Source: a virus. From it: a stretch of 64,000 nt of DNA. Below the pieces are notes generated by a model. It saw nothing but the letters and a program-made list of their open reading frames with translations, was not told the origin of the DNA and did no database searches. Of this stretch, positions 24,683-54,608 are shown in pieces. Made by a program: the position numbers and the translations under genes. The stretch's first letter is position 1; each line of letters begins with the position of its first letter. Where the stretch lies: the IMG/VR virus record IMGVR_UViG_3300049215_000481, positions 78,857 through 142,856 of that record; one strand, given 5' to 3'.

Positions 24683-27600
24683 GTGGCGAGCACCGGCATG
24701 ATCATCGACGGAGTCCTTGGCTCGGAAGCCATCGACTCCTCAGGCGAAATCCTCGACGTCGAGGGCGCCGACATCTCCGACGTCGACAAGGGCACCCTCC
24801 TCCTCAACTGGGAGCACGAGCCCGGCGAGAAGGGCGCCAACACCATCGTCGGCAAGGTCATCGCCGCCAAGAAGATCTTCGGGCCCGACGACTGCGAGAA
24901 CGACCGCCAGTACGCGTACTGGCAGAAGGTCAAGCTGCCGTTCATCTACGGCATCTGCCGCCTGTTCGACGGCGCCGGCCACGAGAACGCGAAGGCCATC
25001 GCGGCCATTATCCGCGACAACGCCGCCCACGGCGAGATGCTGGTGTGCCGGTTCAGCGTCGAGGGCTCGACGCTGGAGAAGGAGGGCAACCGCCTCAAGG
25101 CCTCGGTCATCAGGCGCGTCGCCGTCACGGTGAAGCCCTGCAACCGGACCGCGAATTCGGGCCTGATCGAGGACCCGAACGCGCCCGAGGGCTTCGAGAC
25201 GAACGTCGCGAAAGAGAAGACGTCCGACCTGCTCTCCCTGCAGGACGCCCACAAGAACGAGCTGGCCCACCCGCTCTACGAGCGCCTCGGCCGCTCCGAA
25301 GAGATCACGTGCAACCCGCTCGTCGACGGCGAGCTGGCGAAGGCCCTCACCCTCGGCGGCGGCGACGTCGCCCCGAGCGCGACCGCGGGCTTCGGCGCGC
25401 TCGTTCCGCAGAGCATCGGCAAGGGCACCGTCCTCGCCACGCTCCGGGACTACGGCTCGAAGAAGAAGTTCGACAAGACCGAGTTCCGCGCGTTCGCGAA
25501 GATGCGCCTGCCCGAGGCGAGCGACGAGTTCCTCGACCACTTCAGCGACATGGCCGAGGACTACCACGTCCGTCGCGCCCAGCTCGTGAAGAAGGAGGAG
25601 GCGGCCCCCGCTGCGAAGCAGCCGAAGGTGAAGGTCGCCAAGCCGGCCGCCCCAGCGGCGGCCAAGCCGGCCAAGGCCGCCAAGCCGAAGGAGCAGCCCG
25701 TCGACGAAGAGGATGCCGCGCCCATCAAGATCGCGAACGGCACCATCCGTGGCATCCCGACGCAGCCGCTCAAGATGCGCGGGTACAAGTTCGACGAGCA
25801 GAACGGCATTCTGCACACGCCCAAGGGTAGCTTCCCGCTCTACAACCCGGACAAGGGATTCGCGACGGTCGAGCACGCTGGTGCAAAGACTCCGTTCTAC
25901 AAGGACGGCAAGCTGCACGTCGCGCCGGGCACTGACATGTCTACGGTCCCGGCCAACACGCCGAACCCCGGCTTTCGCGAGATCTACAACTCGCAGCCCA
26001 TCGAGGACTTCCACAGCGGCAAGGTCATGCCGAACTGGATTCGTCTGCACGAGCTGACGAAGTCCGGCCAACTCCCCGACGAGGTCGTCATGCACTCGGC
26101 GATGTTCTCGATGATGTCGCCCAACACGCCCGTGCGCCCGCACGAGCTGATGTACTCGCACCTGGCGGACACGTTCGAGGACCTCGGCATCGACCCGCGC
26201 GACCCCGACTTCAAGCGCGCTCGCAAGCACTGGCTCGACAAGGACCAGGGCACGAACTACCCGCGTCTGGCCGGCGACTACTTCCGGAACCACGCGGACG
26301 CCCACCTGAGCAACGACTCCGAGGCCAAGGGGCGCAAGGCCGGCGAACTGATGTCGTTCATGCTCGGTCAGAACAAGTTCGACAACGTCCAGCAGTACCA
26401 CAAGCTCCACTCGACGCTCGTCGACATGGTGAAGCGCCACGGCGTCAACTCGCGTGCAGCCACTGCGGAGTTGATGGGACACAAGCACAAGCAGCAGCTC
26501 TTCAAGCAGAAGTACGGCGCTGCGAAGTCAGAGGCGAGGAAGGCCGGCTTCGCCGCTGGTCTGCGCGACCACAAGATAGACTACGTCACCGCGCAGGAGG
26601 CCGCGTACGGCAAGAAGATCGACGAGCGGCAGATCGCTGGCCTCCGCAAGCAGTGGCGGGCCGAGGCTGACAAGCTCGGCCTGAAGAACGACCTCTCGGA
26701 GCACGCGGAGAACGCTGCGAAGGCGAAGATGGGCGAGTACAAGGGCGTCACCGTGCCCGGTCTCGCGCCCAAGACGGGTCGCTTCACGTTTACGATGTTG
26801 GGCGGTGGCAACACCTTCGTCCCCGACACGCACATCATCCGGCACCTCTTCGGCATGGATGCCGACAAGGATGGCGACACGCTCGCCTACCTCAAGTCCG
26901 TGCTCTGGAACGCGAACAACCACCACGTCCTCGAAGGCATCGACCGGTGGTATGCGAAGAACCACCCAGCCGCGCAGACGATGCAGCAGCACCCCACGTG
27001 GGGTCGCCACTTCCAACAGGACCCCGAGCAAGCGAACTTCCCCGCGTTCTGGCGCCACTGGTGCTCGATCGCCGAGGACGAGCGTCGCCGCGGCATGGTC
27101 AACAAGTCGGCCAACGAGTTCTCCACGCACGAGCCGTTCTTCCTCAAGATGAACAGCATCCTCGACCGCCTGAAGAAGTCCGCGGTCACCGGCATCGACC
27201 ACGGGCTCCTCGCGCGCCTGCTCGTCCTGCACAGCCAGTACCACGAGCAGTTCGGCGAGATCCCGGCGCAGATGATGTACGTGCACCACATCGTGCCGCA
27301 CCTCCTGGAGATGGCGCAGTACCGCCAGCGGCACGACGACCTGCCCGACTTCGCGAAGCACCTCCGCGTGAACGCGCTGGAGATCGAGCTGCGCAAGGCT
27401 GCCTCGGACCTGCAGGCAGCGTCGCTCGCCGACCCGCAGATCCCGACCATCCACGGCGTGCACCTGAAGATCAACGGCCAGGAGCACCGCGCCGGCCGCT
27501 TCGCAATCGCCGACGGACACATCCACCACTTGGAGGACTACTACGGCCTCCTCAACGAGGTGCTGCCCGAGGGCAAGCTCACGCCCGCGAAGGTCGCGAC

Positions 27601-28648
27601 CATCCACGGCATGAAGATGTCGCCGTCGCTGCGCGTGGACGTCGAGCACGTCGGCCTCCCGAAGTACGACGAGGTCCCACAGGAGATCCCCGCGGCGCAG
27701 CCGCTGAAGCGGCCGATGCCGTCCGTCTTCCACTACCGCCGCGCAGGCATGGACCAAGACCACGTCCTGGAGGTGCGTCAAGGGCACTACCTGCTCGACG
27801 GTAACCGTTTGTCCTACCCGGAGGTCCAGTCGGTCGTCAGCAACCTCCGCGACGGCTCGGCGCAGATTCGCTATCCGAACAAGGAAGGCGCAATCGAGCA
27901 GATCCGGAAGATGGAGTCGCAGTTGCAAGACCTGATGAAGGCCGCGTCGGAAGAAGAGGGGCCGGAAATCGACGAGGACGCGATGCTGCAGCATGCACGC
28001 GCGGCCGAGGCGGCTGGACACCTGCCGAAGGGCTTCGCCCGCAACTACGCGCGCTCCCTCTACGAGGACCCGATGACCCCGGGCATGGGCAACAAGAAGG
28101 CGTGGCAGAACTTCGCCGAGAAAAAGAAGCCGGGCACCTACATCCAGATGGACGGGAACTCGTTCAAGGCCATCAACGACGCCTTCGGGCACCAAGGCGG
28201 CGACTCGGCCATCAAGGCGTTCGGAGCAGCCGCACGTTCAGCGATGGACGAAGCTGTCGGTCAGACGCACGGCAAGCTCTTCCGCAACGGCGGCGACGAG
28301 TTCATCGCGCACGTCCCGAGCCCCGAGCACGCGGCCAAGTTCTCGCGCCTGCTCAGTCAGAAGCTCCAGGCGATGCCCGCCATCGAAGGCAAGCACCAGC
28401 TCTCGATGGCATTCGGGTTTGGCCACACACCCGAGCACGCTGACAAGGCGCTCTATGCGGCTAAGGCGCAGAAGATCGATCCGGCTACAGGGAAGTCGCG
28501 CTGGCCGATTGGCCAGGTGCCGAATCTTGCCCACTCCCTGGTGCCTGGTCATGAGGGACCACTCCCTCTTCATGATCCGCAAGCGGCGGCTGTGCATGGG
28601 CTGCAAGATACGCCACAGCCCGCCGCAGCAGCTCAGCCGAATCTCTAA
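24683..28648 (+). CDS. prohead protease polyprotein: protease + HhH-GPD-like domain + GGDEF diguanylate cyclase
   Basis: N-terminal DSSGE, NWEH, FSVEG protease motifs; middle PGLAPKTG...VPDTHIIR; C-terminal DPMTPG...DGNSFKAINDAFGHQGGD...RNGGDEF...ADKALYAAK. Confidence 0.85.
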   Translation: MASTGMIIDGVLGSEAIDSSGEILDVEGADISDVDKGTLLLNWEHEPGEKGANTIVGKVIAAKKIFGPDDCENDRQYAYWQKVKLPFIYGICRLFDGAGHENAKAIAAIIRDNAAHGEMLVCRFSVEGSTLEKEGNRLKASVIRRVAVTVKPCNRTANSGLIEDPNAPEGFETNVAKEKTSDLLSLQDAHKNELAHPLYERLGRSEEITCNPLVDGELAKALTLGGGDVAPSATAGFGALVPQSIGKGTVLATLRDYGSKKKFDKTEFRAFAKMRLPEASDEFLDHFSDMAEDYHVRRAQLVKKEEAAPAAKQPKVKVAKPAAPAAAKPAKAAKPKEQPVDEEDAAPIKIANGTIRGIPTQPLKMRGYKFDEQNGILHTPKGSFPLYNPDKGFATVEHAGAKTPFYKDGKLHVAPGTDMSTVPANTPNPGFREIYNSQPIEDFHSGKVMPNWIRLHELTKSGQLPDEVVMHSAMFSMMSPNTPVRPHELMYSHLADTFEDLGIDPRDPDFKRARKHWLDKDQGTNYPRLAGDYFRNHADAHLSNDSEAKGRKAGELMSFMLGQNKFDNVQQYHKLHSTLVDMVKRHGVNSRAATAELMGHKHKQQLFKQKYGAAKSEARKAGFAAGLRDHKIDYVTAQEAAYGKKIDERQIAGLRKQWRAEADKLGLKNDLSEHAENAAKAKMGEYKGVTVPGLAPKTGRFTFTMLGGGNTFVPDTHIIRHLFGMDADKDGDTLAYLKSVLWNANNHHVLEGIDRWYAKNHPAAQTMQQHPTWGRHFQQDPEQANFPAFWRHWCSIAEDERRRGMVNKSANEFSTHEPFFLKMNSILDRLKKSAVTGIDHGLLARLLVLHSQYHEQFGEIPAQMMYVHHIVPHLLEMAQYRQRHDDLPDFAKHLRVNALEIELRKAASDLQAASLADPQIPTIHGVHLKINGQEHRAGRFAIADGHIHHLEDYYGLLNEVLPEGKLTPAKVATIHGMKMSPSLRVDVEHVGLPKYDEVPQEIPAAQPLKRPMPSVFHYRRAGMDQDHVLEVRQGHYLLDGNRLSYPEVQSVVSNLRDGSAQIRYPNKEGAIEQIRKMESQLQDLMKAASEEEGPEIDEDAMLQHARAAEAAGHLPKGFARNYARSLYEDPMTPGMGNKKAWQNFAEKKKPGTYIQMDGNSFKAINDAFGHQGGDSAIKAFGAAARSAMDEAVGQTHGKLFRNGGDEFIAHVPSPEHAAKFSRLLSQKLQAMPAIEGKHQLSMAFGFGHTPEHADKALYAAKAQKIDPATGKSRWPIGQVPNLAHSLVPGHEGPLPLHDPQAAAVHGLQDTPQPAAAAQPNL

Positions 28649-29090: not shown

Positions 29091-29445
29091 ATGCTTTTAG
29101 ATTGCTACTCCGAGCGCGCCGCGCGGCCTTCGAGCACGTCTTGCACGTGCGGCGCCCCTCGTAGAACTCGATGAAGATCGGGAGCAGGGCGCCGCACGGA
29201 CCTCGACACTGGCGGAGTCCGGTCTCCTCGTTGCAGCGCGAGCAGATCTTGTTCTTGTCGAGTGGCCGGTTCCTCAGACACTGCGCACACACAGTGTCGT
29301 AGCGGCTGTCGTAGTACGCCTGCGACCTGCACTCCTTGCAGCGCGACTTCACCTCGCGCCTGCGGTCGGGCGCAGACTCTTCGTGAAACTCGCGGCGCGG
29401 TTTCGGCGTGGTGCAGCCGGCGCACACGTACAACTTCTCGTTCAC
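29083..29445 (-). CDS. multi-CxxC zinc-finger protein
   Basis: CAGC, CKEC, CAQC, CSRC, CRGPC, CKTC; motif B at 29453-29460. Confidence 0.65.
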   Translation of the reverse strand: MNEKLYVCAGCTTPKPRREFHEESAPDRRREVKSRCKECRSQAYYDSRYDTVCAQCLRNRPLDKNKICSRCNEETGLRQCRGPCGALLPIFIEFYEGRRTCKTCSKAARRARSSNLKACE

Positions 29446-29554
29446 GACGCAGAAGATTGCATTGCAGGATTTTTGTCTCGGTTACAGCCGCAATCTCCTA
29501 GGGGCATCGAGCGCGCAGTCGCTCCTTTCAAGTTCCCAACAGGAGATTCATTCA

Positions 29555-30010
29555 ATGTCCGCAAAGTCCCAGGCAATCGCTCACGAGCTGGCCGATGAGC
29601 TGAAGAAGCGTCTCTCGTCTCTCGCCCTCGTCGAGGGTCAGGACACCAACGGCGACGCCACGATCACGATCGGCACGGGCACCGCTGGTCAGAAGAACGT
29701 GTTCATCCGCGTGAAGGCGATCGACTGGCCGCTGGCGACGAACGTCATCGGTCTCGCTCAGCCGGTCTACACGCCCACGGTGATCCAGTTCGTCACCGAG
29801 AAGAACTACGAGGGCACCACGGACAACGTGCTCGACATCCTCGGCCCGGCGGAGCTGCTCCCGCTCATCGGCACGATCGTGGCCAAGGGCACGAACGTCG
29901 AGTGGTACCGCACGAACAACGGCACGGCTCCCACCGTCTCCGGCATCACGGGCGCCGCTGCGGCGACGTGGAAGGAGTCGCTGTACTGGGGCATGAAGGC
30001 GTCCCAGTAG
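29555..30010 (+). CDS. putative head structural protein
   Basis: AGGAG SD; first gene of the scaffold-capsid operon. Confidence 0.6.
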   Translation: MSAKSQAIAHELADELKKRLSSLALVEGQDTNGDATITIGTGTAGQKNVFIRVKAIDWPLATNVIGLAQPVYTPTVIQFVTEKNYEGTTDNVLDILGPAELLPLIGTIVAKGTNVEWYRTNNGTAPTVSGITGAAAATWKESLYWGMKASQ

Positions 30011-30055: not shown

Positions 30056-30997
30056 ATGTCCACGAAAGACATCAACCTCGACACGCTGGTGTCCGAGGTC
30101 AAGAAGGAGCTGGAAGGGCTCCTCAAGGCGGAGGCCGACGTTCTGGCCAAGGCCCATCCCGGCGAGGACACTTCGGACGAGACCCCCGCGGACGAGTCCG
30201 CGACGGCCTCGGAGGCCAGCTCGCCGGCTGACGCGGGTCCTCCCGCTGACGACGCTTCGGCGTCCGCTGCGCCTCCGCCCTCGGGTGACGGCGACGCTGA
30301 CGACGCTCCCCCGGCGGATGCCTCGGGTTCGGCCCCGGCCGACGCGAGCGCCTCGGGCGATCCCGCGGCCGACGCGACCACGGACCACGACGCGCTCGTC
30401 GCCGAGTACAGCAAGCTCGACGCCGAGACGCTGAAGGCGCACTTCCTCGCGGCGAAGGAGGCCCTCATGGCCGCCCTCGGCGCGGACGCAGCCGGAGCGG
30501 CCGACGGCGCCCCCGCAGCTCCTCCCGCTCCGGCGGCGGACGCGGGCGCACCTCCTCCGGCAGCAGCGGCGGCGCCCCCGATGGACGCCGGCTCTCCTCC
30601 TCCCGACGCGCCCCCGGCGCTGAAGGGCGAGATGCCGGCCGACGGCAACGGTGAGAACCCGCTCGACGCGGTTCGCAAGGCCGAGGCCACGGTGAAGGAC
30701 GCCGAGATCGCCGCGCTCAAGAAGAAGGTCGCGGAGCAGGACGAGGCCCTCGGGAAGCTCGTCACGGCGATGAAGGTCGTCGTCGAAGCTCCGGCGCGCA
30801 AGACGGTGACGTCGCTCACCCAGATCAAGAAGAACGAGGGCGTCGACGTCACGTCGATGTCGCGCGACCAGGTTCGCGCCGCTCTCCGTCGCAAGGCGGA
30901 AGGGAAGCTCAGCAAGTCGGACCGCGAGCTGATCAACCAGTTCGCTCTGAACCTCATCACGGTCGAGAAGGTCGCCCACCTCCTCGAAAACAAGTAA
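30056..30997 (+). CDS. putative capsid scaffold protein
   Basis: acidic Ala/Pro-rich with coiled-coil segments, directly upstream of the major capsid gene. Confidence 0.65.
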   Translation: MSTKDINLDTLVSEVKKELEGLLKAEADVLAKAHPGEDTSDETPADESATASEASSPADAGPPADDASASAAPPPSGDGDADDAPPADASGSAPADASASGDPAADATTDHDALVAEYSKLDAETLKAHFLAAKEALMAALGADAAGAADGAPAAPPAPAADAGAPPPAAAAAPPMDAGSPPPDAPPALKGEMPADGNGENPLDAVRKAEATVKDAEIAALKKKVAEQDEALGKLVTAMKVVVEAPARKTVTSLTQIKKNEGVDVTSMSRDQVRAALRRKAEGKLSKSDRELINQFALNLITVEKVAHLLENK

Positions 30998-31064: not shown

Positions 31065-32468
31065 ATGAATCTCATCGAGCAAATCGGCGGCCTGGTCAAG
31101 GCACTCGAAGCCGGCAACTACGACGCGGCCCCCAGCCGCCTGCAGCAGGGCGCGGCCCTGCAGGTCGAGGACCTGTCCGACGTCATGCACAACGTGACGT
31201 TCGACCAGGACAAGATCAAGCTGCAGAAGATGCTGAAGGTCGAGAGCTGCAAGAGCCAGCTCGCGCAGTTCAACCGTCAGCTCAGCTACGGCATCATGGG
31301 CGGCGCCGCCGCCATGGAAGGCGGCATCGGTCAGGAGGAGACCTCGGATTACGTCCGTGTGACGGTTCCGATGGCGTACTACTCCGAGCTGCGCCGGGTC
31401 ACGCTCCAGGCCAACCTGGTCGAGACCGTGGACGGCGTGAAGGCGGAGGAGCGCGCGGCTTCGGACGCGGCGATCCACCTGGCGGCGAACATCGAGTTCG
31501 ACTGCTTCCGCGGCATGGCCGACTTCAGCAACGCGGGCGTGTTCGACGGCAACCCGCTGACGATCGCCGACCTCCCGAACATGCACGGTCTCGACCTGCA
31601 GGTTCGCCAGAGCGACAACCAGCGCAGCTCGCGCGACCTCATGTTCTCCGAGTTCGGCTCGGACGAGACGGTCGTGCTCTCGCAGGGCGGCGTCCTGACG
31701 CAGGAGACGGTCGAGGACGCGAGCGTCCGTTCGGCCCTCAACTGGGGTGAGGCGGAGAAGCTCATCATCGACCCGCGCTCGCTCAGCGCGTACAACAAGC
31801 TCGCGTTCGGCATCTCGCGCAACGTTCTCGCGGGCCAGCCGCTGGACGCGACGGGCGCCGACCTGCGCAAGCAGTGGGTGAGCGGCGGCACGGTCTCGAT
31901 CGAGGCGTCGCACTTCCTCCGCGGCAAGTACAAGCCCGCTCCGGCTCGCGCCAACGGCCCCCTGGCCCCGGCGTCGATCTCGCCGGCTTCGACCACGGAC
32001 GCGACGGCCCCCACGGCCTTCACCGCCGGCCAGGTGTACATCTACACCGCGACGAGCTGCAACGAGCTGGGCGAGAGCCTCCAGTGCGCGTCGCAGTCGG
32101 TGACGATCGGGACCACGGCCGACAAGGTCGTCGTGACGATCAACCACCCGGCGTCGGGCACGGTCCGCTTCTTCAACGTCTACCGCACGGTGGCGGGCGG
32201 CGCGGCCGGCACGCAGAAGTTCATCGGCCGCGTGGTCATCACGCCGGGCGCGAACTCGACGACGTTCACGGACCTCGGCAACAAGCTGCCCGGCTTCGTG
32301 ACGGGCTTCCTGATCGAGGGCGACACGATGATGCTCAAGGAGCTGGCGTCGTACTCGCGCGTGAAGCTGGCGGTCACCGACCTCAGCATGCCCGAGGCGC
32401 ACTTCCGCTTCTGCACCCTCGCGGTGACGGAGCCCCGCAAGAACGTCCTCATCGACAACCTGAAGTAG
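31065..32468 (+). CDS. major capsid protein (resembles SPO1/Twort-like MCPs)
   Basis: LVKALEAG...GAALQVEDL N-terminus, EETSDYVR, DAAIHLAANIEFDCFRG; AGGAG SD; followed by a terminator. Confidence 0.88.
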   Translation: MNLIEQIGGLVKALEAGNYDAAPSRLQQGAALQVEDLSDVMHNVTFDQDKIKLQKMLKVESCKSQLAQFNRQLSYGIMGGAAAMEGGIGQEETSDYVRVTVPMAYYSELRRVTLQANLVETVDGVKAEERAASDAAIHLAANIEFDCFRGMADFSNAGVFDGNPLTIADLPNMHGLDLQVRQSDNQRSSRDLMFSEFGSDETVVLSQGGVLTQETVEDASVRSALNWGEAEKLIIDPRSLSAYNKLAFGISRNVLAGQPLDATGADLRKQWVSGGTVSIEASHFLRGKYKPAPARANGPLAPASISPASTTDATAPTAFTAGQVYIYTATSCNELGESLQCASQSVTIGTTADKVVVTINHPASGTVRFFNVYRTVAGGAAGTQKFIGRVVITPGANSTTFTDLGNKLPGFVTGFLIEGDTMMLKELASYSRVKLAVTDLSMPEAHFRFCTLAVTEPRKNVLIDNLK

Positions 32469-35462: not shown

Positions 35463-35510
35463 CCTAGGTCGTTCGGTAACGTTTCAACGAGCCGCAATCT
35501 TCGATTCGCG

Positions 35511-36041
35511 ATGCGGCAGGTGTCCTTCCACTTCATGCACAAGAAGCGTCCGACCTCCCGCCACGCGCAGGAGGACAAGGACGGGTGGGTGCGGATGTAC
35601 CAGCAGGGGAAGAGCTATCGCGAGATCGCGGTAGCGTTCGACGTACCGTATCCGAGCGTCTTCTACTATGTCAGGAAGACCCTCGGCATCACTGACGGAC
35701 GGAAGCCCGGACGCAAGAAAAAGTACACGGATCTTTCTCCTCGCCAGGTCCAGCGCAACTGCCAGCTCAGGAACTCGTACGGCATCTCTCTCGACGAGTA
35801 CGCAGTATTGAAGGAGTCGCAGGGTGGCGTCTGCGCGATTTGCGAACTGCCGCCGAAGAACGGCAAGACGTCGACAAGTGCACTGCACGTAGATCACGAC
35901 CACGAGACTGGTCGAGTGCGTGGGCTGCTCTGTCAGAAGTGCAACCCAGCTCTCGGCCAGTTCAACGACGACCCAGACCTGCTGGAGCGTGCGGCCTCGT
36001 ACCTGCGCCTTCACCGTGAAGCTCAGAAGGTGGCTGCGTAG
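35511..36041 (+). CDS. HNH endonuclease (EndoVII-like) with N-terminal HTH
   Basis: [14 protein letters not shown] helix-turn-helix; CAIC...[20 protein letters not shown]. Confidence 0.88.
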
Positions 36042-43042: not shown

Positions 43043-43450
43043 GTGGCCGAGACGAAGGAACAGGCAGCCGTCCGGATGCGAGAGTGGCGCCGGACTCATC
43101 CCCGCACCAATGCCATGCGGGTGGCAGCGCGTGAGAACGCGCGTCGATGGCGGAAGAACAACCCTGCCAAGGTGAAGATCCAGAACCGTCGCGACAACCT
43201 CAAGAAGAACTACGACCTCAGTACCGAGCAGTACGAGGCGATGATCGTCGCGCACGAAGGCAAGTGCCACGTCTGCAAGCAGCCTCCGACTGGACGCTGG
43301 AAGCGGCTCCACGTAGATCACGACCATAGTACCGGTGTGATTCGCGGCCTGCTGTGCAGCGGCTGCAATCTTGCCCTCGGCCACGTGAGAGACAACCCTC
43401 AGACTCTCCGCGACCTGGCCACGTACCTGGAGGCGAGCCGTGAACACTAA
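43043..43450 (+). CDS. HNH endonuclease (EndoVII-like)
   Basis: CHVC...LHVDHDHSTGVIRGLLCSGCN. Confidence 0.88.
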   Translation: MAETKEQAAVRMREWRRTHPRTNAMRVAARENARRWRKNNPAKVKIQNRRDNLKKNYDLSTEQYEAMIVAHEGKCHVCKQPPTGRWKRLHVDHDHSTGVIRGLLCSGCNLALGHVRDNPQTLRDLATYLEASREH

Positions 43451-44270: not shown

Positions 44271-45122
44271 GTGAGCACGCGCATGCATCCTCGGAAGCTA
44301 GCCTTTCTCACCGGCGTCCTCGGCTCAGACGGCGCTCTGGCACTCGCCAAAGCCAGTGAACGCTCCGAGGTGTTCGCTCACGCCATCGTTCCCCGCACCA
44401 TCCTCGCGTGGCTCGCCTCTGAGCCCGCCTACGAGGGGCCACTTCCGGGCGTCGGTGACACGTACATCGCGTTCACGAAGAACGAGTCCGCGTTCTCGGG
44501 CTCGGTCACCGTCGGCAAGGAGCTGTACCGGTTCGAGAACGAGACGGTCTTCCACGTCGCCGCCAGCATCGCCGTCGCGCTCGGCGTCGAGAAGGAGCGC
44601 ATCGACCCCGGCATGCGGAACGTCGACATCCAGCGCCTCGGCAAGACCATCGACCTCTTCGCGAAGACGAGGATGGTGAAGCGCGAGCTGAACAAGGCGT
44701 TCTGCCCGGGGTGCATCAGCAAGAAGGCGGAGCACGTCGAGTCGTGTACCAAGCGCAAGGAGCTGGAGAAGGGCCAGGAGGGCCCCGGGCTCACCGCGGC
44801 GCCGACGGCACCCGAAGCTCCGACGCCGCCCACGCCGGCCGGAGGCACGCCGCCCAAGAGCGCCACGGTGGTCAAGCCGCCCAAGCCTCCCGGTGCGAAG
44901 AGCGCCACCGTCAAGTTCACGCGCTCGGAGGCGACTCATCGCTGCGCCGCCTGCGGCATCGCGCAGTTCAAGAACGAGCGCATCCTCGGCTGCATGTGCC
45001 TGCGCGACCTGTGCAAGTCCGCGCGGGTGGTCGCGACGGACGCAGAGACGCTCACCGTCGAGTTCAAAGACCTCGACCGCGAGTCGCTCGTCACGATCTA
45101 CGAGGCCGTGGGGAGGAAGTAG
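44271..45122 (+). CDS. putative internal head protein with zinc-ribbon segments
   Basis: LAKAS, LNKAF, LEKGQ motifs; CPGC, CAAC. Confidence 0.6.
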   Translation: MSTRMHPRKLAFLTGVLGSDGALALAKASERSEVFAHAIVPRTILAWLASEPAYEGPLPGVGDTYIAFTKNESAFSGSVTVGKELYRFENETVFHVAASIAVALGVEKERIDPGMRNVDIQRLGKTIDLFAKTRMVKRELNKAFCPGCISKKAEHVESCTKRKELEKGQEGPGLTAAPTAPEAPTPPTPAGGTPPKSATVVKPPKPPGAKSATVKFTRSEATHRCAACGIAQFKNERILGCMCLRDLCKSARVVATDAETLTVEFKDLDRESLVTIYEAVGRK

Positions 45123-45521: not shown

Positions 45522-46748
45522 CTACTCGTAGATCCGGACGGCGACGCCGACCGGGAAGCACGGCTTCTTGTCTTCGGTCCACTCGAAGAACTTGACCGTG
45601 AGCAGCTTGCCGATCAGCTTGTCGCCGAGTCGCAGGAACTCCGCGCGGTCCTCGAAGTTCCCGGGGGCGCAGCAGTCGAACTCCTTACCTTCGTCCGTCT
45701 TGCACGTGAAGACTTCGTCCGTCTTGCACGTGAAGACGGCCAAGCCCTCGAACTTCCCGCGGCCCTCGCCTACGGCGACGATGGGAAACTCGCGCTCGAT
45801 GAAGGACTTCACCTTCATCAGGCCCGACGACCGCTTCCCTGCCTCGTACTCTCCGTACGGGTCGCGCAGAATGCCGCCCTCGTAGCCCTCGCCGACCCAC
45901 TTCTTCTCGATCGCCCGAGCTTCGCTCTCGCTTGCGACCGAGATCGTCTCGACCCGATGGATGTGGTCGTGCGTCAGGCCGATGATGTTCGTGAAGATCT
46001 CGTCCAGCTCTCCGCGTCTGACGCGCCATGGACGCTTCAGGTTGGCGAAGTCACTGTTGACGGGCAGGTCGTAGACGAAGTGCCCGAGCTGCTCGAAGTC
46101 CGGCTTGGTCTTCTCCTTCCGGACGTAGCCGGAGATCTTCTGCAGCGACCAGCCGTGGCGATAGATCTCGCCGTCGAGCGTGAATCTGCCGGGGACGTCG
46201 CGGAACGCGGCCTCGTACGCTGCCTGGATGTGAGGCACGCCGAGGATGCGCTTTCGCTTCCGGCTCCAGAGGCTGACCTTGCCGTCGACCACCTCGACGA
46301 TGCAGCGCACGCCGTTGAACTTGCGCTGGTAGTCGTAGGGCCAGGTGCGCTTCTTCTCGGGGACGTCCTCCAGCGATTTGGCGAGCATCGGGAAGATGCC
46401 GCCCTCGGCATCATCCTCGCCGGCTTCAGCGCGCTCGCGCTCGACGACGTAGCCGTTGCGCTCCTTCTTCTTGCGCCACAGAGCCTCAGCTTCGAGGCAG
46501 GCCTGCTGGTAGGCGTCCGTTTCGTTCTTCTTGCCCAGGTTCTTTCCTTGGCGGACTACATCCTCGCCCGTCTGAAGCTTCCCGTCGACCTGGCCATGTT
46601 CGGTGTGGATGATCCCAGCCAGTTGGGGGTCGCCCGGTTCGTGAAGATCCTTTTGGAAGCACTTCTCGACCCAGATGCGCCACTGCTGGAGCGCCCCAGA
46701 GCTGGACCGCTTGTACAGCGTCGGAAACATCATCATCTCGGGCATCAC
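45522..46748 (-). CDS. lig: ATP-dependent DNA ligase
   Basis: KFNG motif I, LDGEIY, FVYDL, EGGILR, KRS...KVK, OB domain LTVKFFE. Confidence 0.92.
   Translation of the reverse strand: MMPEMMMFPTLYKRSSSGALQQWRIWVEKCFQKDLHEPGDPQLAGIIHTEHGQVDGKLQTGEDVVRQGKNLGKKNETDAYQQACLEAEALWRKKKERNGYVVERERAEAGEDDAEGGIFPMLAKSLEDVPEKKRTWPYDYQRKFNGVRCIVEVVDGKVSLWSRKRKRILGVPHIQAAYEAAFRDVPGRFTLDGEIYRHGWSLQKISGYVRKEKTKPDFEQLGHFVYDLPVNSDFANLKRPWRVRRGELDEIFTNIIGLTHDHIHRVETISVASESEARAIEKKWVGEGYEGGILRDPYGEYEAGKRSSGLMKVKSFIEREFPIVAVGEGRGKFEGLAVFTCKTDEVFTCKTDEGKEFDCCAPGNFEDRAEFLRLGDKLIGKLLTVKFFEWTEDKKPCFPVGVAVRIYE
45689..45736. repeat. perfect 24-nt tandem duplication inside the ligase (VFTCKTDE x2)
   Basis: CTTCGTCCGTCTTGCACGTGAAGA repeated twice. 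Confidence 0.95.
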
Positions 46749-47563
46749 GCGGCCCTCCGCAGCACGGCGCCGTACACGTCGTGCATCATCTCGCGCGCGT
46801 CGGTGTACAGCTCGTCCAGCGAGCCGTCGTTCTTGATGATGCCGTGGAAGAAGTGGCGCGGGATGCCGCCCAGCTCGGCTTCGCTGCGGTGGTTCTTCAT
46901 CCCGCCCGCTTCGACCGCCTTCGCGTTGGCGTTCGGCCGAACGATCAGGACGGGGAAGCCGCCCACCATGGCCACGCTGATCACCTCGTTGCGGAAGCGC
47001 CCGTCGGTGATGATGGCGAAGTCGTAGCCCGGGAACTCGTCGTTCTGGACGAGGCCCTGGTCACGGTCGTAGGTCCAGCCGCCGCTCAGGAGCTTCTGCG
47101 CGGTCCGGATCGCGTGCTGCGACCACATCTCCTTGTTGACGTGGCGACCGAACTCGGTCCCGAGCGTCTGGAGGACGTAGCGAGGTGAGAGCGCCTCGCC
47201 CTTGTCGAGCTTCTCGCGCTGGACGAACTGTTGGTACCAGTAGATCGCGCGCGCCATGACGTCCGGCGTGCAGGCGCCCGGCAGGATCTCGTTCATGTAG
47301 CTGGTGAAGAGGTTGCTCAGGAGGACTTGAGACGCCTGGCGCTCGGGCAGCAGCGTGCCGACGTCCACGGCGTTGCGGAAGTCGCTCGGCCCCCAGAGCT
47401 GCTGGTCGCTGAAGCCGAACAGGCGCTTCACCAGGCTCTTCATCGGGTCCGCCTGGGCAACGCAGACCCCGTTGTAGTTCTCGGCGATGTAGGAGGCGAC
47501 GGTGTCCTTCCCAGACCCGGCTTGCCCGGCCAGGAGAATCAGGGGCGTGGCAACTTGTGACAT
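46745..47563 (-). CDS. deoxynucleoside monophosphate kinase
   Basis: AGQAGSGKDT P-loop, ADPMK, PRYVLQTLGTEFGR, ITDGRFRNE, HRSE. Confidence 0.9.
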   Translation of the reverse strand: MSQVATPLILLAGQAGSGKDTVASYIAENYNGVCVAQADPMKSLVKRLFGFSDQQLWGPSDFRNAVDVGTLLPERQASQVLLSNLFTSYMNEILPGACTPDVMARAIYWYQQFVQREKLDKGEALSPRYVLQTLGTEFGRHVNKEMWSQHAIRTAQKLLSGGWTYDRDQGLVQNDEFPGYDFAIITDGRFRNEVISVAMVGGFPVLIVRPNANAKAVEAGGMKNHRSEAELGGIPRHFFHGIIKNDGSLDELYTDAREMMHDVYGAVLRRAA

Positions 47564-47605: not shown

Positions 47606-48148
47606 ATGGAGTCCGCCTCACGTCTCTCGCGCTATCGGAAGAGGAAGCGCATTGCACTGCAGTCCCTGAAGACGGGGCCGTGTGTCGACTGCGGACGGAC
47701 CCTTCCGCCTGAATGTATGGATTTCGACCACCTATCCGGCGCCGAGAAGGACACAGACGTGTCCAGATTGGTCAAGTACGCTTCGATGTCGAAGGTCGCT
47801 GACGAAATCGCCAAGTGTGAATTGGTATGCGTCCTGTGCCACCGCAACAGGACGTATCACCGCGCCAAGGCAGTGACCCCCGACAGTCGCTTCGGTCGGT
47901 ACTACGTCAAAAAGCGGACGTTCGTGTGGGCTGTCAAGAACGTGCCCTGCGCTCACTGTGGGATGCGCTACCAACCTTGGCAGATGGACCTAGACCACCG
48001 CGATCCGGCGTCAAAGGTAGCTTGTCGCTCGACAAGGGCGGCAGGTGTCTTGAGCATGAGCCTGGCGCGTCTGCGTGCGGAGCTGCCCAAGCTCGAAGTT
48101 CTGTGCGCAGCTTGTCATCGGACCAAGACCTTCAGAGTGGTGAACTAA
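47606..48148 (+). CDS. HNH endonuclease with two tandem HNH-like units
   Basis: CVDC..DFDH..CELVCVLCH and CAHC..DLDH..VLCAACH. Confidence 0.82.
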   Translation: MESASRLSRYRKRKRIALQSLKTGPCVDCGRTLPPECMDFDHLSGAEKDTDVSRLVKYASMSKVADEIAKCELVCVLCHRNRTYHRAKAVTPDSRFGRYYVKKRTFVWAVKNVPCAHCGMRYQPWQMDLDHRDPASKVACRSTRAAGVLSMSLARLRAELPKLEVLCAACHRTKTFRVVN

Positions 48149-48151
48149 GCA

Positions 48152-49339
48152 ATGGATTGTTTCATTTCGTGGGACGGCGACCACATCGGTCGCCAGGTTG
48201 GTCTCGCCGTACTCGGCGACGACGTAGGCGAGGTGCGCCGCGTCGACCAGGCCATCAACTCTGGCAACGAGCTGTGGCGCTCGTTCTGCCTCCAGGTCGG
48301 CGGCAGCGTCGTCGAGATCGGTGGCGACGAGGGGCGCATCCAGATCGGAGCCGACCACCTCGCAGAGGTTCCCGACATCGCCCGCCGGTACGCGGAGCTG
48401 GTTGGTGCCACCGTCTCCGTCGGCGTCGGCATGAAAATGAGCGAGAGCGCCAAGGCCCTGCTCGTGGCGAAGCTCCGCGGCGGCAACCAGACGGTCCTCT
48501 GGGACCCGGACATGCAGGCCGAGATCGACAAGGCCACCTCCCACCCCAAGACGGAGCAGGAGAAGATCGCCGACGAGTACCTCGGCAAGGCTGACCAGCC
48601 CGGCATCGCCGGCACGACCGACAAGGACCAGCACGCCGGCTTCACCGGCGCCCAGCGGGGCGCGAAGGGGACGCAGGGCGACCACGAAGAGGGCGCCCAG
48701 GCTGAGAAGTCGATCGAGGACGCGCAAGACGCAGCCCCGCCGCCGCCCGAGGGTACGCACGCCGCCGAGGACTTCGAGAAGCAGCTCCACGACATGGCGG
48801 CTGCACAGGGCAAGAAGGACGACGCCGACAACCAGCAGCAGGCTTCGCAGGCCGACCAGGTCAAGCGCCGCGTCGCTGAGGTCCTGCTCGCGGTGCGCCA
48901 GCAGATGCCCGTCCTGCAGCAGCTCCAGACGTCGGCGCCCGACACGTTCGCCGCCATCATGGGGCTCGTCCAAGGCGTCATCGAGCTGGGCCGCTCGGTC
49001 TCGCCGGCCGCCCCCGCACAGCCTCCGGCCGACCGCGAGCCAAGCCATGTTCAGGCCGCCCTCTCGACCGTCCAGAAGGAGGAGATGGACGCCAGCCCGG
49101 CCACGAAGGTGGGCGAGCTGGACAAGGCCAACCTCGGCGCGAACGTCGCCGCTTCGGGCCACCACCTCCACCTCCCGGTCGGCTCCGTGCTCGACGGCAA
49201 GGTGAAGGTCGCGCACGCCGACGGCACGCAGGGCTGGAAAGAGGTCCGGGCCGGCATGGTCCAAGGCAAGGAGCCGGGTGCGCCCCTACTTGGGGCCGTG
49301 TCCCATCCGGTCAGCTCTAGACAGCCCGGCGCGAAGTAG
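48152..49339 (+). CDS. mCpol (minimal CRISPR polymerase / Cas10-palm-like cyclic nucleotide synthase) domain fused to a low-complexity virion-type tail
   Basis: N-terminal ~117 aa: ISWDGDHIGR...GGSVVEIGGDEG...TVSVGVG...ESAKALLVAKLRGGN; LGKA and LDKA motifs downstream. Confidence 0.75.
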   Translation: MDCFISWDGDHIGRQVGLAVLGDDVGEVRRVDQAINSGNELWRSFCLQVGGSVVEIGGDEGRIQIGADHLAEVPDIARRYAELVGATVSVGVGMKMSESAKALLVAKLRGGNQTVLWDPDMQAEIDKATSHPKTEQEKIADEYLGKADQPGIAGTTDKDQHAGFTGAQRGAKGTQGDHEEGAQAEKSIEDAQDAAPPPPEGTHAAEDFEKQLHDMAAAQGKKDDADNQQQASQADQVKRRVAEVLLAVRQQMPVLQQLQTSAPDTFAAIMGLVQGVIELGRSVSPAAPAQPPADREPSHVQAALSTVQKEEMDASPATKVGELDKANLGANVAASGHHLHLPVGSVLDGKVKVAHADGTQGWKEVRAGMVQGKEPGAPLLGAVSHPVSSRQPGAK

Positions 49340-51939: not shown

Positions 51940-51960
51940 GCCGCCCGCAATCTTCTCGGC

Positions 51961-53445
51961 ATGTCCGGCACGCCCGAAGGTGCAGACACGCACCTGTACA
52001 AGGCCCCTCCTCCCGAGGTCGCTGACCACCCTCTGTTCCACGGTGGCCAGACCGTCGGGATGATGACGGCCGAGGCGCCGCGCTTCTCGTCTGAACAGGG
52101 CGGCAACGAAGCCCTCGAATCGCACTTCAAGCAGATGGGCCTCAAGTACGAGCCCACGCACGGGTCGTACGGCGGGCCCGAGCACTCGTACCTCGTCTAC
52201 AACCCGACGCGCGAGCAGATGTACAAGCTCGGCCAGAAGTTCGGGCAAGAGGCCGTCATCTACTCGCAGGACGGCCGCCACGAGCTGCTGTACACGCGCG
52301 GCGACAACGCCGGCAAGTACCACCCGAGCCTGCCCCTGCTCCGCTACAGCAAGGAGCAGCCGGACGACTACTACACGCACATCCCGCAGCGCGGGTACGT
52401 GACGCTCCACTTCGACTTCGACCACCCGCAGGACTCGCCGGTCAAGAACAACATCCCGCTGGCGCAGCAGACGCCGACCGGCGACAAGCCGCTCAACAAG
52501 CGTGAGATCCGCGAGCACCTGCTCATCGCGCTCCGCAAGAGCATGGGCGGCTCGAAGCACCCGCACTCGTACCCGTGGCACGAGGGACACACGGGTCACC
52601 ACCAGCACTCGGTGGGTGGCGGTGTCCTCCTCGACAGCAGCAAGTACCAGGGGCTGTTCCGGTTGGCCAAGAAGGACGAGTCCGCTCTCACTCCCACGGT
52701 CCCGCACAACAACCCCCAGGCCGCCGGTGCCGGCGTCGCCACGTACGCGAAGTACGCAGCGCCCCACGGGACCATCGACAAGGCGAAGCCCTCGAACCTG
52801 AAGTTCTACCCGATGGCGGGCACCAAACCTGTCGTCGACAAGCTCGTCAAGGACAACGGCTTCCAGGTCTACTACGCGGGCGGCAAGCACGGGAAGGCCG
52901 ACCTCGCCGGCAAGAACTACAACACCGGCCACCTGATGATCTGGGACCCGAGCGCGGGTTCCGGCGGTGACTTCAGCGAGGCCGACTACACCGACAACTG
53001 GCGCAAGACGCACGAGCTGGCGCACGCACTCACGTACCCGCAGCTCAACCAGATCTACGGAGAGGGCCGCCGCATGGGCGGACTCGGCAAGCAGCGCACC
53101 GCCCGAGAGGCGAAGCGCGCCGTGCACTGGGAGTGGCTCGCAGCCCACAAGCAGCGCGAACTCGCCGCGCAGGCCGGCGTGCACATCTCGGACGAGGACT
53201 TCCACCGCAAGCTGAACACCGTCATGCACGACGCGGTTCACCGCGCGGTGACCGGCAAGTTCACGGAGCCCTCGGACGAGGGGTTCGTCCCGCACCCGCA
53301 CAAGGTGCCACTGGAGACCGCACTCGGACTCGTGGATGAGGCCGCACGTGGGATGGGCCTGCACTCAGACCACGACGTCATCCGGAAGTTCTCGCGCGAC
53401 CTCCTCTTCGCTCTGAAGGACGTCCTCCAGAAGAACGCTCGCTGA
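51961..53445 (+). CDS. multidomain protein: DUF3293-like domain + HExxH zinc metallopeptidase-like domain
   Basis: MTAEAP..GNEAL...GSYGGPEHSYLV..LGQKFGQEAVIY; THELAH with downstream HWEW; LYKA, LRKS, LAKK linkers. Confidence 0.65.
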   Translation: MSGTPEGADTHLYKAPPPEVADHPLFHGGQTVGMMTAEAPRFSSEQGGNEALESHFKQMGLKYEPTHGSYGGPEHSYLVYNPTREQMYKLGQKFGQEAVIYSQDGRHELLYTRGDNAGKYHPSLPLLRYSKEQPDDYYTHIPQRGYVTLHFDFDHPQDSPVKNNIPLAQQTPTGDKPLNKREIREHLLIALRKSMGGSKHPHSYPWHEGHTGHHQHSVGGGVLLDSSKYQGLFRLAKKDESALTPTVPHNNPQAAGAGVATYAKYAAPHGTIDKAKPSNLKFYPMAGTKPVVDKLVKDNGFQVYYAGGKHGKADLAGKNYNTGHLMIWDPSAGSGGDFSEADYTDNWRKTHELAHALTYPQLNQIYGEGRRMGGLGKQRTAREAKRAVHWEWLAAHKQRELAAQAGVHISDEDFHRKLNTVMHDAVHRAVTGKFTEPSDEGFVPHPHKVPLETALGLVDEAARGMGLHSDHDVIRKFSRDLLFALKDVLQKNAR

Positions 53446-53576
53446 TTTTGGCGCGCCGTAGTTGGGGCGCGTTCACGGCAACGCCAGGCACGAAGCCGCG
53501 TTCCGACTGCGCGTCACAGCGTTTTGGCGCGTTCCCAACCTGAATCTTTCAACCACCTGAACGGAGCTTACATCCA

Positions 53577-54608
53577 GTGTCTCAGACCCCCACCACTCGC
53601 AAGGAAATCGCCGCGACCCTCGCCAAGGGCCTTCGCGGAGCGCTCGACAGCTACGCCGAGGACCTCCGCACTCTTCGCGCGCGCGAGCTGCAGAAGAACA
53701 TGGACGCCGGCACTGGCGGCCAGGGCGACGTCCCGCTCGCGATGAGCGAGCAGTGCATGTGCAAGGGCGATGGTGCCCACGAGACGTGCAGCGGCTGCGG
53801 CAAGTCGATCGTGTCGCTCGCGCACAACACGAGCGGCAAGTGCGGCTCGTGCAACCGCAAGCCGCCGGCCAAGACGCCGGAGCCGTACGACAAGCGCTTC
53901 GCCAAGCCCGTCAAGAAGACGGTCGAGGACCCGACGAAGCTGCTCTTCGAGACGAAGGAGCCGAAGCCGCTCCACCCCAGCGACAAGAAGCCGATCAAGA
54001 AGGACGAGAAGACCGTCGGCGAGGCGAAGACCGCGCCCGACGCGCGCCGCCCCGGCTCGAAGCTCCCCGAGGACGCGAAGCCGGCGCAGGCCGCTGACGC
54101 TCCTGGCTCGGGCGGTCTCAAGAAGACCGCGATGCCCGGCGCGAAGATCCCGAAGGTGCCGGGCACGCCCGGCAAGCAGCCGGTCGGTCAGGGCGGCGGC
54201 GACTCGCCCGGCCGGACCTCGGTCGCTCAGGCCAACGCCGAGATCGGCAAGATGAAGTCGATCGCGTCGAGCCCGACGGCGATGCCGACGGGTGCGCCGG
54301 TCGTCGGCGCACCCGCCCCGAAGCCCGCAGCTCCCGCGGCGGCAGCTCCGGCACCGGCCGGCAAGCTGCCCGGCCCGCTCCAGGGCGTCCGCGACAGCAT
54401 GAACCTCGGCCACGACATGAAGGCCGGCGGCGTGGGCTGGCTGCAGCGCCTCGTCGCGAGCCGCAAGCCGGCCGTCGCAGCGCCTCCCGCCCCGGGCGGC
54501 GGCAGCGCGTTCGGCCCCACCTCGAAGCGCGCCACGGGCATCGCCACCAGCCACGCCGCTCTCGCTCGCAGCGAGAAGACCCCTTCGAAGACGGCCGCGA
54601 AGAAGTAG
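53577..54608 (+). CDS. putative internal head protein, Pro/Lys/Ala-rich with zinc ribbon
   Basis: LAKG, LQKN, LKKT motifs; CSGC/CGSC. Confidence 0.65.
   Translation: MSQTPTTRKEIAATLAKGLRGALDSYAEDLRTLRARELQKNMDAGTGGQGDVPLAMSEQCMCKGDGAHETCSGCGKSIVSLAHNTSGKCGSCNRKPPAKTPEPYDKRFAKPVKKTVEDPTKLLFETKEPKPLHPSDKKPIKKDEKTVGEAKTAPDARRPGSKLPEDAKPAQAADAPGSGGLKKTAMPGAKIPKVPGTPGKQPVGQGGGDSPGRTSVAQANAEIGKMKSIASSPTAMPTGAPVVGAPAPKPAAPAAAAPAPAGKLPGPLQGVRDSMNLGHDMKAGGVGWLQRLVASRKPAVAAPPAPGGGSAFGPTSKRATGIATSHAALARSEKTPSKTAAKK

Follow-up and report, generated by a model that had tools for sequence, protein, structure and literature searches.

A polyprotein that joins a prohead protease to several enzyme domains is encoded among the head genes of a phage represented by one 169,280-bp contig (IMG/VR virus record IMGVR_UViG_3300049215_000481; 65% GC). 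The window, as the whole analysed stretch of 64,000 nucleotides (nt) is called here, covers bases 78857–142856 of that contig; all positions below are those of the window, and the gene set comprised 161 genes from a codon-model gene call. Between portal and sheath, the short motif LxK followed by Ala or Ser (LxK[AS]) recurs in the capsid, scaffold, and portal proteins as well as in the 1321-amino-acid (aa) polyprotein and in further multi-domain enzymes encoded nearby. This motif is very probably the cut site of the head-maturation protease, and its distribution suggests that the head takes up signalling and DNA-repair-type enzymes, which are then freed from one another by cleavage.

Gene order between portal and sheath

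On the plus strand, the module opens with a terminase, assigned by synteny with Myxococcus phage Mx1, and a 323-aa protein. These are followed by the portal protein (728 aa, 21111–23297, Pfam Phage_portal) and a MuF-like head protein (261 aa, 23299–24084), which gives weak matches to Phage_Mu_F and phrog_2662, is 44% identical to the product of the Mx1 gene adjoining the portal, and has no LxK[AS] site. Next come the polyprotein (24683–28648), a 200-aa protein, a scaffold-like protein (313 aa, 30056–30997), so assigned by its position between protease and capsid genes as in SP-10, and the major capsid protein (MCP, 467 aa, 31065–32468), which matches phrog_752 (E 3e-42) and shares 26% identity with the SP-10 MCP. 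Past a set of neck genes lie an HNH gene, a NUDIX-kinase protein, and a second kinase, then neck/virion genes and a 283-aa protein. The order ends with another HNH gene, an mCpol protein, further neck genes, a DUF3293 protein, a 343-aa protein, and the sheath (54656–57157).

The nearest sequenced relative is Mx1 (OR576727.2, 169.6 kb), with 57% MCP identity, and the Bacillus phages SP-10 and Goe26 (Herelleviridae) are distant MCP relatives. At the DNA level, a megablast search of the region against phage records gave no match. An IMG/VR search with the MCP alone returned a single locus (L004), which stands outside the comparison set. That set consisted of Mx1 (L001) and two further contigs of about 170 kb each, one from an NCBI assembly (L005) and one from a JGI metagenome (L006), whose polyproteins are 37–39% identical to that of this phage. 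The placement of the polyprotein gene, with portal and MuF-like genes before it and the 200-aa, scaffold, and MCP genes after it, is matched in Mx1, L005, L006, and SP-10.

The LxK[AS] motif in head proteins

Occurrences of LxK[AS] were compared with the counts expected from shuffling each protein's own residues. The head set comprised the 23 plus-strand genes from portal to sheath, leaving 138 genes as the remainder. Across the genome, 55 sites were observed against 30.6 expected. The head set accounted for 26 against 6.7 (about 4-fold; Poisson P = 1.2e-8), and the other 138 genes for 29 against 23.2 (Poisson P = 0.14), so the comparison of head-module with other proteins that the original prediction had proposed as its own check returned an excess confined to the head set. 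Both forms contribute, with 15 L.KA sites (4.4 expected) and 11 L.KS sites (2.3 expected). In a scan of some 24,000 three-residue patterns, L.KS and L.KA were the top head-set motifs with at least 5 copies, a Gln run excepted, and they ranked in the thousands outside the head set. Given this rank in an unbiased scan, the signal survives correction for a motif chosen after the proteins had been seen, with the head-set P value of 1.2e-8 becoming about 3e-4 once the ~24,000 patterns are allowed for. Ala or Ser follows 26 of the 60 LxK triplets of the head set versus 29 of 165 elsewhere (Fisher P = 1.7e-4).

The excess is spread over structural and enzyme proteins alike: NUDIX-kinase (5 sites vs 0.78 expected), polyprotein (5 vs 1.21), 283-aa protein (3 vs 0.25), portal (3 vs 0.57), scaffold (3 vs 0.57), mCpol protein (2 vs 0.26), and DUF3293 protein (2 vs 0.40). 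With ↓ marking the predicted cut, the portal sites are all LxK↓S, at K56 (nt 21270–21281), K345, and K680 (nt 23142–23153); the N- and C-terminal ones are kept in L005 and L006 as L[VF]K↓SILNVL and LTK↓SE.QLP. The scaffold carries LLK↓A, LAK↓A, and LSK↓S. The LxK motifs quoted in the original prediction are all present in the proteins named there; FSKS of the second kinase, listed with them, is not an LxK site.

The same division recurs in other phages. In Mx1, 27 sites (7.3 expected, z 7.5) fall in the 20 annotated genes from portal to sheath, compared with 13 (9.4 expected) across 66 control genes at 41–91 kb. L005 and L006 carry, respectively, 2 and 2 sites in the portal, 4 and 4 in the polyprotein, 4 and 3 in the scaffold, and 1 and 2 in the MCP, for a joint 22 against 5.0 expected, whereas 43 other genes of theirs hold 1 (6.1 expected). 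In SP-10, the portal, procapsid protease, scaffold-position protein, and MCP have 11 sites against 1.35 expected, and 17 other genes have 2 against ~3.6. Scaffold homologues contain 3–4 sites each in Mx1, L005, L006, and SP-10. In all five phages LxK[AS] is thus enriched in head proteins and candidate internal proteins and nowhere else, and the shared split in Mx1, L005, L006, and SP-10 indicates that the motif is a property of the SPO1-type head module and older than the Mx1-like clade.

Four protein families built from homologues tell the same story at larger scale, with a 3- to 4-fold excess of LxK[AS]. The control patterns K.L[AS], [AS]K.L, L.R[AS], and L..K[AS] are mostly near 1–1.5-fold, as are most control motifs; a few run higher: in the protease family, for instance, L.E[AS] and F.K[AS] come to about 2-fold, and in the NUDIX family M.K[AS] comes to 2.7-fold. 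L.E[AS] reaches 2.0-fold in the protease family and 1.06-fold in the NUDIX family. Across hundreds of relatives the motif brackets NUDIX, kinase, GGDEF, mCpol, and HExxH domains despite differing domain order.

That the motif marks a cut is argued by the MCP, whose site is LVK↓A at K12 (nt 31092–31103). The MCPs of Mx1, SP-10, and this phage share an invariant N-terminal sequence, L-x-K-A-[LM]-E-A-G, which SPO1 gp6.1 (PDB 9vel) also has. It aligns with V-V-K24-S25 of a Staphylococcus phage MCP (PDB 5lii, 463 aa). The same Staphylococcus MCP is deposited as a 439-aa chain in PDB 9row, where residue 6 corresponds to residue 30 of the full-length form; the deposited mature chain therefore begins at S25, directly past the aligned Lys. 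The Lys-Ser maturation of SPO1/Twort-like capsid proteins, which the original prediction had taken as known, is in this way borne out by PDB chain boundaries rather than by a paper, and published N-terminal sequencing of SPO1-type MCPs was not found in the literature. A Felix O1 paper considered as a parallel proved irrelevant, as it concerns a different protease and no processing.

Aligned over 1179 sites from the four families, the extended consensus has Glu or Asp at P4–P5, Leu at P3, and Lys at P1, followed on the primed side by Ala (71%) or Ser at P1′, Glu or Asp at P2′, and Pro, Asp, or Glu at P3′–P4′. Of the earlier interpretation of the shared motif, the part that reads it as a cleavage motif has held, the motif being common to MCP, scaffold, portal, and protease, keeping its position in more than 100 relatives, and coinciding with the aligned mature N-terminus; the packaging part is a good inference and is weighed below.

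Domains and motif positions in the enzyme proteins

The polyprotein begins with the prohead protease domain (residues 1–165; nt 24683–25177, plus strand), modelled by AlphaFold2 with a predicted local distance difference test (pLDDT) score above 90 over residues 1–160/165. The top Foldseek matches in the PDB are all herpesvirus assemblins (best E 6e-4, probability 0.99), plus T4 gp21 (5jbl). None of 49 relatives departs from His45 and Ser125, which by analogy are the putative catalytic residues; the sequence F-S-[IV]-E-G around Ser125 is common to the SP-10 procapsid protease in a local match. A word search retrieved 108 polyprotein relatives, on contigs of up to 201 kb. The assemblin-like protease is N-terminal here and in the aligned relatives (~98% column occupancy). 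The C-terminal cargo of the relatives is mostly GGDEF, and some carry a PI3/PI4-type kinase, PBECR5, or DUF5661 additionally, or no recognised domain.

Past the protease core, in a low-confidence tail, lies LAK↓A at K220, an LxK[AS] site in 62 of 105 relatives. It leads into a copy of the MCP N-arm (ALTLGGGDVAPS...), the two together spanning 25334–25420 on the plus strand. The pattern x-x-A-G-x4-A-P-S-x-L-T after K220 is conserved, matches the MCP N-terminus, and is detectable in the Mx1 and SP-10 proteases. The N-arm copy itself (of K↓A-L-E-A-G-N-Y-D-A-A-P-S type; nt 25343–25420) occurs in nearly all aligned relatives shown, with the Mx1 counterpart at residues 234–270 of L001:13002–16721. 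Within this genome, no other protein was found to contain a copy of the MCP N-arm. The copy may dock the protease at binding sites for capsid N-arms, or may act as an extended substrate mimic.

Six further motif positions follow. K303 (LVK↓K) sits at a conserved-to-variable transition and has LxK[AS] in just 14 of 99 relatives, and K460 (LTK↓S) lies within the glycosylase fold described below. K832 (LKK↓S) comes 4 residues ahead of a pLDDT dip. At K905 (LRK↓A; 27389–27400, plus strand), [ED]-L-[RK]-K is followed by A, S, N, T, or D in about 95 of 108 relatives, and the alignment turns variable directly after the Lys. K1086 (LMK↓A; 27932–27943, plus strand), of the form L-[ML]-K↓[ASGND], marks another conserved-to-variable step and precedes an acidic linker and the GGDEF domain, within whose region K1116 (LPK↓G) is found. 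The conservation drop at K303, K905, and K1086 is at the 94th–98th percentile.

The middle of the polyprotein consists of a beta-rich subdomain and an HhH-GPD (Ogg-like) domain with helical inserts (residues ~345–832; 25715–27178, plus strand). The AlphaFold2 model of the segment at residues ~345–905 has a pLDDT of 91.3 and a predicted template modelling score (pTM) of 0.82. Several searches were uninformative: Foldseek against the PDB and AFDB clusters gave noise only, no Pfam match for an HhH-GPD middle domain was obtained, and a protein-atlas feature search gave HhH-GPD hints below threshold. With VIA-align, the top match was 3n0u_A, the Thermotoga 8-oxoguanine glycosylase Tm1821 (Z 14.7, root-mean-square deviation 3.1 Å, 207/209 residues), and 21 of the next 22 rows were HhH-GPD glycosylases or queuine-salvage enzymes. 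K697 (APKTG) is at least 90% conserved and D715 (VPDTH) is invariant; G-L-A-P-K...V-P-D-T-H aligns with G-I-G-Y-K...I-I-D-R-H of Ogg 3fhf_A in a weak profile match (E 1.7). Structural modelling thus supports an HhH-GPD glycosylase/lyase-like assignment at fold level, and the HhH-like domain that the original prediction had placed here is recovered by the VIA-align comparison of the model. This glycosylase-like domain is the best-conserved part of the polyprotein in the 108 relatives, including those that lack GGDEF.

The C-terminal diguanylate-cyclase-type GGDEF domain (27968–28552, plus strand) scores 54.9 bits in Pfam against a cutoff of 23.8, and its motif is intact (N-G-G-D-E-F at residues 1202–1207; GGDEF at nt 28289–28303). 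A site lies at most 30 residues upstream in 49 of 80 GGDEF domains. Some 100 nt upstream of the GGDEF part, the polyprotein gene contains a perfect copy of an upstream motif described below as motif A (27866–27874, plus strand); the next in-frame ATG, M1077, is 36 nt downstream of it. As the Mx1 cyclase has a gene of its own, an internal start here may yield a free GGDEF protein.

The remaining enzymes are encoded among the neck genes, all on the plus strand. Domain calls made earlier for GGDEF, NUDIX, the two PI3/4-kinase-like proteins, mCpol, DUF3293, and the portal hold in Pfam searches. The NUDIX-kinase protein (946 aa, 36041–38881) consists of NUDIX, a domain without assignment, helical repeats, and a PI3-PI4/HipA-like kinase (Pfam NUDIX and PI3_PI4_kinase), with sites at K135, K142, K236, K499, and K505 (LSK↓A, LAK↓A, LGK↓A, LNK↓S, and LAK↓A). 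Its family of 89 relatives has 206 LxK[AS] sites against 72 expected and arranges NUDIX, kinase, GNAT, ART-PolyVal, histidine phosphatase (His_Phos_1), and DUF3626 domains in varying order. A site falls at most 30 residues after NUDIX in 39 of 69 cases; where NUDIX is internal, a site lies 7–9 residues upstream in 8 of 21, and the kinase is preceded by a fixed-offset site in 47 of 70. The second PI3-PI4/HipA-like kinase (447 aa, 38882–40225) has weak Pfam matches and is 42% identical to a Mx1 protein annotated as kinase. The Cys-containing 283-aa protein (44271–45122) carries LAK↓A (K27), LNK↓A, and LCK↓S (K249); its Mx1 homologue has 4 sites (0.33 expected), the N- and C-terminal ones at matching places.

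The mCpol protein (48152–49339) comprises an mCpol domain (residues 1–117; Pfam 40.1 bits vs cutoff 26.4) with its GGDE motif kept, an acidic, Gln-rich linker, and a 60-aa C-terminal domain, with sites LGK↓A (K146) and LDK↓A (K325). Its 116 relatives, some of which add GNAT, ParB-like, or DUF5661 domains, have 195 sites against 45.5 expected. Of 108 proteins, 79 have a site no more than 40 residues past the mCpol domain, mostly at 20–40, and [LV]-x-K↓[ASGD] lies about 12 residues ahead of the C-terminal domain. No 2TM-beta or CARF-TM effector gene adjoins mCpol, the upstream neighbour being an HNH gene and the downstream one a neck-region gene without an effector-type match. The 60-aa C-terminal domain (49140–49336, plus strand; H-H-L-x-L-P-V-G-S...N-G-K) forms the C terminus of 113 of 117 mCpol-family proteins irrespective of the intervening sequence; elsewhere in this genome and in Mx1 it was not found, being confined to the mCpol protein and its Mx1 homologue. 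It could be a head-targeting or anchoring piece.

The DUF3293 protein (494 aa, 51961–53445; Pfam DUF3293) has sites LYK↓A (K14), LRK↓S (K193), and LAK↓K (K237), and many library alignments begin at residues 197–203 or 242–251, just past K193 and K237. Among the top 150 relatives there are 454 sites against 121.6 expected. The peptidase listed earlier among the enzymes corresponds to its HExxH domain (HELAH at nt 53011–53025), for which no Pfam match was found at E <0.01 and whose HExxH is kept in 151 of 151 matches. The C-terminal half (52550–53400, plus strand) is a widespread zinc-peptidase-like domain whose position varies among the 807 library proteins that contain it, the longest having 2933 aa. 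Catalytic residues are likewise retained in GGDEF, the NUDIX box, the kinase D-x-H-x-x-N, the mCpol GGDE, and the glycosylase Lys/Asp pair.

Enzyme and structural genes also share an upstream signal. Motif B (GCCGCAATCTT) occurs in 14 copies against 1.07 expected, all on the plus strand and 6–18 nt before gene starts. It precedes the gene ahead of the portal, the polyprotein (24666–24676, plus strand, one mismatch, directly upstream of the start), a neck gene, the HNH/NUDIX-kinase/kinase run, the HNH/mCpol run, and the DUF3293 protein, the copies before the cargo operons being at 35491 (NUDIX-kinase), 47587 (mCpol), and 51944 (DUF3293 protein), all plus strand. Standing before structural genes and cargo operons alike, it marks the enzyme genes with a structural-gene signal. 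Motif A (ATTCGCTAT) lies before a minus-strand ligase and deoxynucleoside monophosphate (dNMP) kinase gene pair and other non-structural genes, about 10 nt from their starts.

The region was earlier described as a head/neck module, which fits the plus-strand head and neck genes; it is not a purely structural block, because it also contains three plus-strand endonuclease VII (EndoVII)/HNH genes (35511–36041, 43043–43450, and 47606–48148) and, mid-region on the opposite strand, the DNA ligase and dNMP kinase pair (45522–47563), and is better described as a head/neck module with insertions. The HNH genes at 35511 and 47606 directly follow a motif B copy and stand immediately before cargo genes (NUDIX-kinase and mCpol); the gene at 43043 is followed by one for a virion protein and comes ~300 nt after a motif B copy. 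The three look like homing-endonuclease insertions at operon starts. Mx1 also encodes thymidylate-synthase-like and dUTPase genes (L001:21191–22887). SPO1 and SP-10 carry a modified base, and the dNMP kinase, the SPO1-type head module, and the candidate packaged glycosylase-like domain raise the question of whether these phages have one too. The 200-aa open reading frame (29408–30010, plus strand) between protease and scaffold is conserved in Mx1, L005, and L006, and its product has no family match and no LxK site. Its true start is probably later, as the relatives are ~150 aa and a motif B-like copy lies at 29487 within it.

Probable packaging and processing in the prohead

Taken together, the explanation that we regard as probable is that LxK↓[AS], often with Glu or Asp at P4–P5 and P2′, is the motif of the capsid-maturation protease, a predicted His/Ser assemblin-fold enzyme that would have been inherited with the SPO1/SP-10-type head module. 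The polyprotein would be divided, in order, into the protease, K220, the N-arm copy, the Ogg-like HhH-GPD domain, two small domains, and GGDEF, with conserved putative sites flanking each, and the MCP (by way of a 12-residue propeptide), scaffold, and portal would be trimmed at the same motif. Prohead proteases are built into the prohead. Since this one must be as well, the domains fused to it would enter with it and be cut apart there. Occurrence of one motif both in MCP, scaffold, and portal and between enzyme domains points to cutting by the same enzyme, which would require co-location. The motif at junctions, together with the shared structural-gene signal, makes the NUDIX-kinase, mCpol, DUF3293-HExxH, and 283-aa proteins most likely prohead cargo, and we infer the physical presence in the head of the first three and of the second kinase. 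Folded domains of 15–60 kDa cannot exit a closed shell, so DNA ejection would carry them out, on the model of T4, P22, T7, and SPN3US (PMC10052503).

A more specific claim about function is doubtful: that heads come preloaded with a GGDEF cyclase, mCpol, a NUDIX hydrolase, kinases, and a DNA glycosylase, set free from polyproteins by the head protease, and so jam host immune signalling upon DNA entry, ahead of phage gene expression. As an example of how this might work, a virion-delivered mCpol could, through its product, hold Panoptes-type effectors inactive during the time in which the phage neutralises CBASS or type III CRISPR signals.

Several observations weigh against packaging and processing as set out above. 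The Foldseek TM-scores of the protease domain are low (0.3–0.5), with no competing fold, and the domain has neither a Pfam family (query and 49 relatives) nor a PDB profile match. Motif matches are not always junctions, since K460 is in the glycosylase fold and K1116 in the GGDEF region; the claim that sites mark domain boundaries accordingly stands for K303, K905, and K1086, approximately for K220 and K832, and not for these two internal ones, and a pooled conservation-drop boundary test on the polyprotein alone gave P = 0.075. The second kinase has one strict site (LTK↓S, K68; 1 vs 0.36 expected), which is uninformative, and the Mx1 mCpol homologue has 0 strict sites. In Mx1 the cyclase is a separate gene, which together with the internal motif A copy makes a free, unpackaged GGDEF protein possible. 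No capsid-targeting element was found, with the N-arm copy and the mCpol C-terminal domain examined, for cargo unfused to the protease; no proteomic data for Mx1-like phages were found in the literature; and the system holds a second peptidase-like domain, HExxH.

These last points bear on the rather unlikely alternative that the prohead-protease site operates only in MCP, scaffold, portal, and protease, while the free-standing enzymes are cut at similar sites by another peptidase (e.g., the HExxH domain of the DUF3293 protein) or undergo cutting in the cytoplasm and stay unpackaged. It gains from the conservation of the HExxH domain, its occurrence in very large multi-domain proteins, the missing targeting signal for unfused cargo, and the metallopeptidase self-processing of polyvalent proteins proposed by Iyer et al. 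2017 (PMC5512222). Yet the motif in the enzyme proteins is indistinguishable from that in MCP, scaffold, and portal, acidic P2′ included; SP-10 head proteins have the motif although no polyvalent protein is annotated in the 19-kb SP-10 locus; and a second protease of identical specificity is less parsimonious. Packaging and processing of the enzyme domains might also serve the virion itself, as internal core or DNA-binding mass, scaffold extension, or ejection aid, which is unlikely. The glycosylase-like domain could then hold DNA and the GGDEF domain could dimerise, a role that would suit the conservation of the former even where GGDEF is absent, and giant phages do contain large internal protein masses of largely undefined composition (PMC10052503). 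Against such a role, catalytic residues are kept in the GGDEF, NUDIX, kinase, mCpol, and glycosylase-like domains, and the cargo is shuffled and replaced by toxin-like modules (ART-PolyVal, PBECR5, GNAT) in the style of conflict effectors.

It is very unlikely that LxK[AS] in the enzyme proteins goes uncut, as a linker or helix-cap feature or as a docking tag that recruits intact proteins through protease or scaffold. Several sites do end conserved amphipathic helices (e.g., before K905), Leu, Lys, and Ala are helix formers, and conservation by itself cannot tell cutting from binding. However, non-head proteins show no excess and those of two relatives fall below expectation, K.L[AS], L..K[AS], and L.R[AS] are mostly not comparably enriched, and maturation does take place at the homologous MCP site. 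An artefact of chance or of composition in Lys/Ala/Leu-rich proteins has a negligible probability: short motifs are common and this one was picked with the proteins in view, but it outlasts the full pattern scan and recurs in four further phages and across four protein families.

Packaging and processing by the phage's own prohead protease has precedents. In T4, gp21 trims the capsid, scaffold, portal, and the internal proteins IPI-III and Alt, and processed internal proteins enter the host. The SPN3US prohead protease (gp245) cuts after A-X-E, and internal and ejection head proteins are processed (PMC10052503). As with T4 gp21, phiKZ gp175, and SPN3US gp245, one short motif is here common to head and internal proteins. 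Those enzymes, in contrast, recognise sites ending in Glu (L/I-x-E or A/S/G-x-E) and act mostly to trim off N-terminal propeptides, whereas here the predicted P1 residue is Lys, the motif lies between enzyme domains, the cargo is of nucleotide-signal and DNA-repair type, and the protease itself is fused to cargo. Herelleviridae (SPO1, SP-10, phi812/K) share the order of portal, protease, scaffold, and MCP, a homologous MCP (phrog_752), and the site L/V-x-K↓A/S-x-E/Q-x-G. They have a stand-alone ~250-aa protease in place of a 1321-aa polyprotein and only neck genes between MCP and sheath; here the neck genes are interrupted by inserted genes for enzyme polyproteins bearing the same motif.

Another close match is to the polyvalent proteins of phages and conjugative elements, which Iyer, Burroughs, Anand, de Souza, and Aravind 2017 describe as shuffled multi-domain effectors encoded beside virion genes and predict to be packaged and processed (PMC5512222). 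Relatives of the proteins described here combine NUDIX, kinase, GNAT, ART-PolyVal, His_Phos_1, DUF3626, PBECR5, DUF5661, mCpol, ParB-like, and GGDEF domains, and of these GGDEF, kinases, GNAT, NUDIX, ART-PolyVal, and PBECR5 belong to the polyvalent repertoire too (PMC5512222). The location of the enzyme genes between portal and sheath, behind motif B, is a further likeness. According to the same paper, an assemblin-like peptidase is rare in polyvalent proteins and always C-terminal, unlike the N-terminal one here, which is the phage's own prohead protease; it describes no cleavage motif shared by capsid and cargo, and the parts of it that were read mention neither mCpol nor HhH-GPD (PMC5512222).

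Mx1 resembles this phage in its syntenic head genes, a 1239-aa 'putative prohead protease', NUDIX, kinase, mCpol-like, and DUF3293-like proteins, and motif enrichment; it differs in its separate cyclase gene, the placement of NUDIX in the middle of a 1479-aa protein, and a GC content of 55% vs 65%. Its genome announcement leaves these proteins undiscussed (PMC10720576), and no papers on them were found in the literature. The Panoptes mCpol (OptS) constitutively makes an inhibitory cyclic dinucleotide (PMC12657230). Like the OptS of that system, whose effector is of 2TM-beta type, the protein described here has an mCpol domain with GGDE; unlike it, the gene is phage-encoded, lies behind a structural-gene signal, and has no adjoining effector, and the product adds a linker with cut motifs and the 60-aa C-terminal domain.

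Mx1 grows on Myxococcus xanthus DK1050, which makes the proposal directly testable. LxK↓[AS] in an MCP-like context could serve to find packaged effectors in uncultured phages. The enzymes are candidate time-zero anti-defence factors, among them the first phage-borne mCpol noted in this context, and a DNA glycosylase-like domain travelling with the protease would be a new architecture. If the proposal is true, the internal-protein idea developed for T4 and phiKZ would extend to Lys-specific SPO1-type proteases and nucleotide-signalling enzymes, and in a widespread clade of ~150–200-kb soil phages, with more than 100 metagenomic relatives per family, the capsid protease would both direct swappable enzymes to the head and cut them free.

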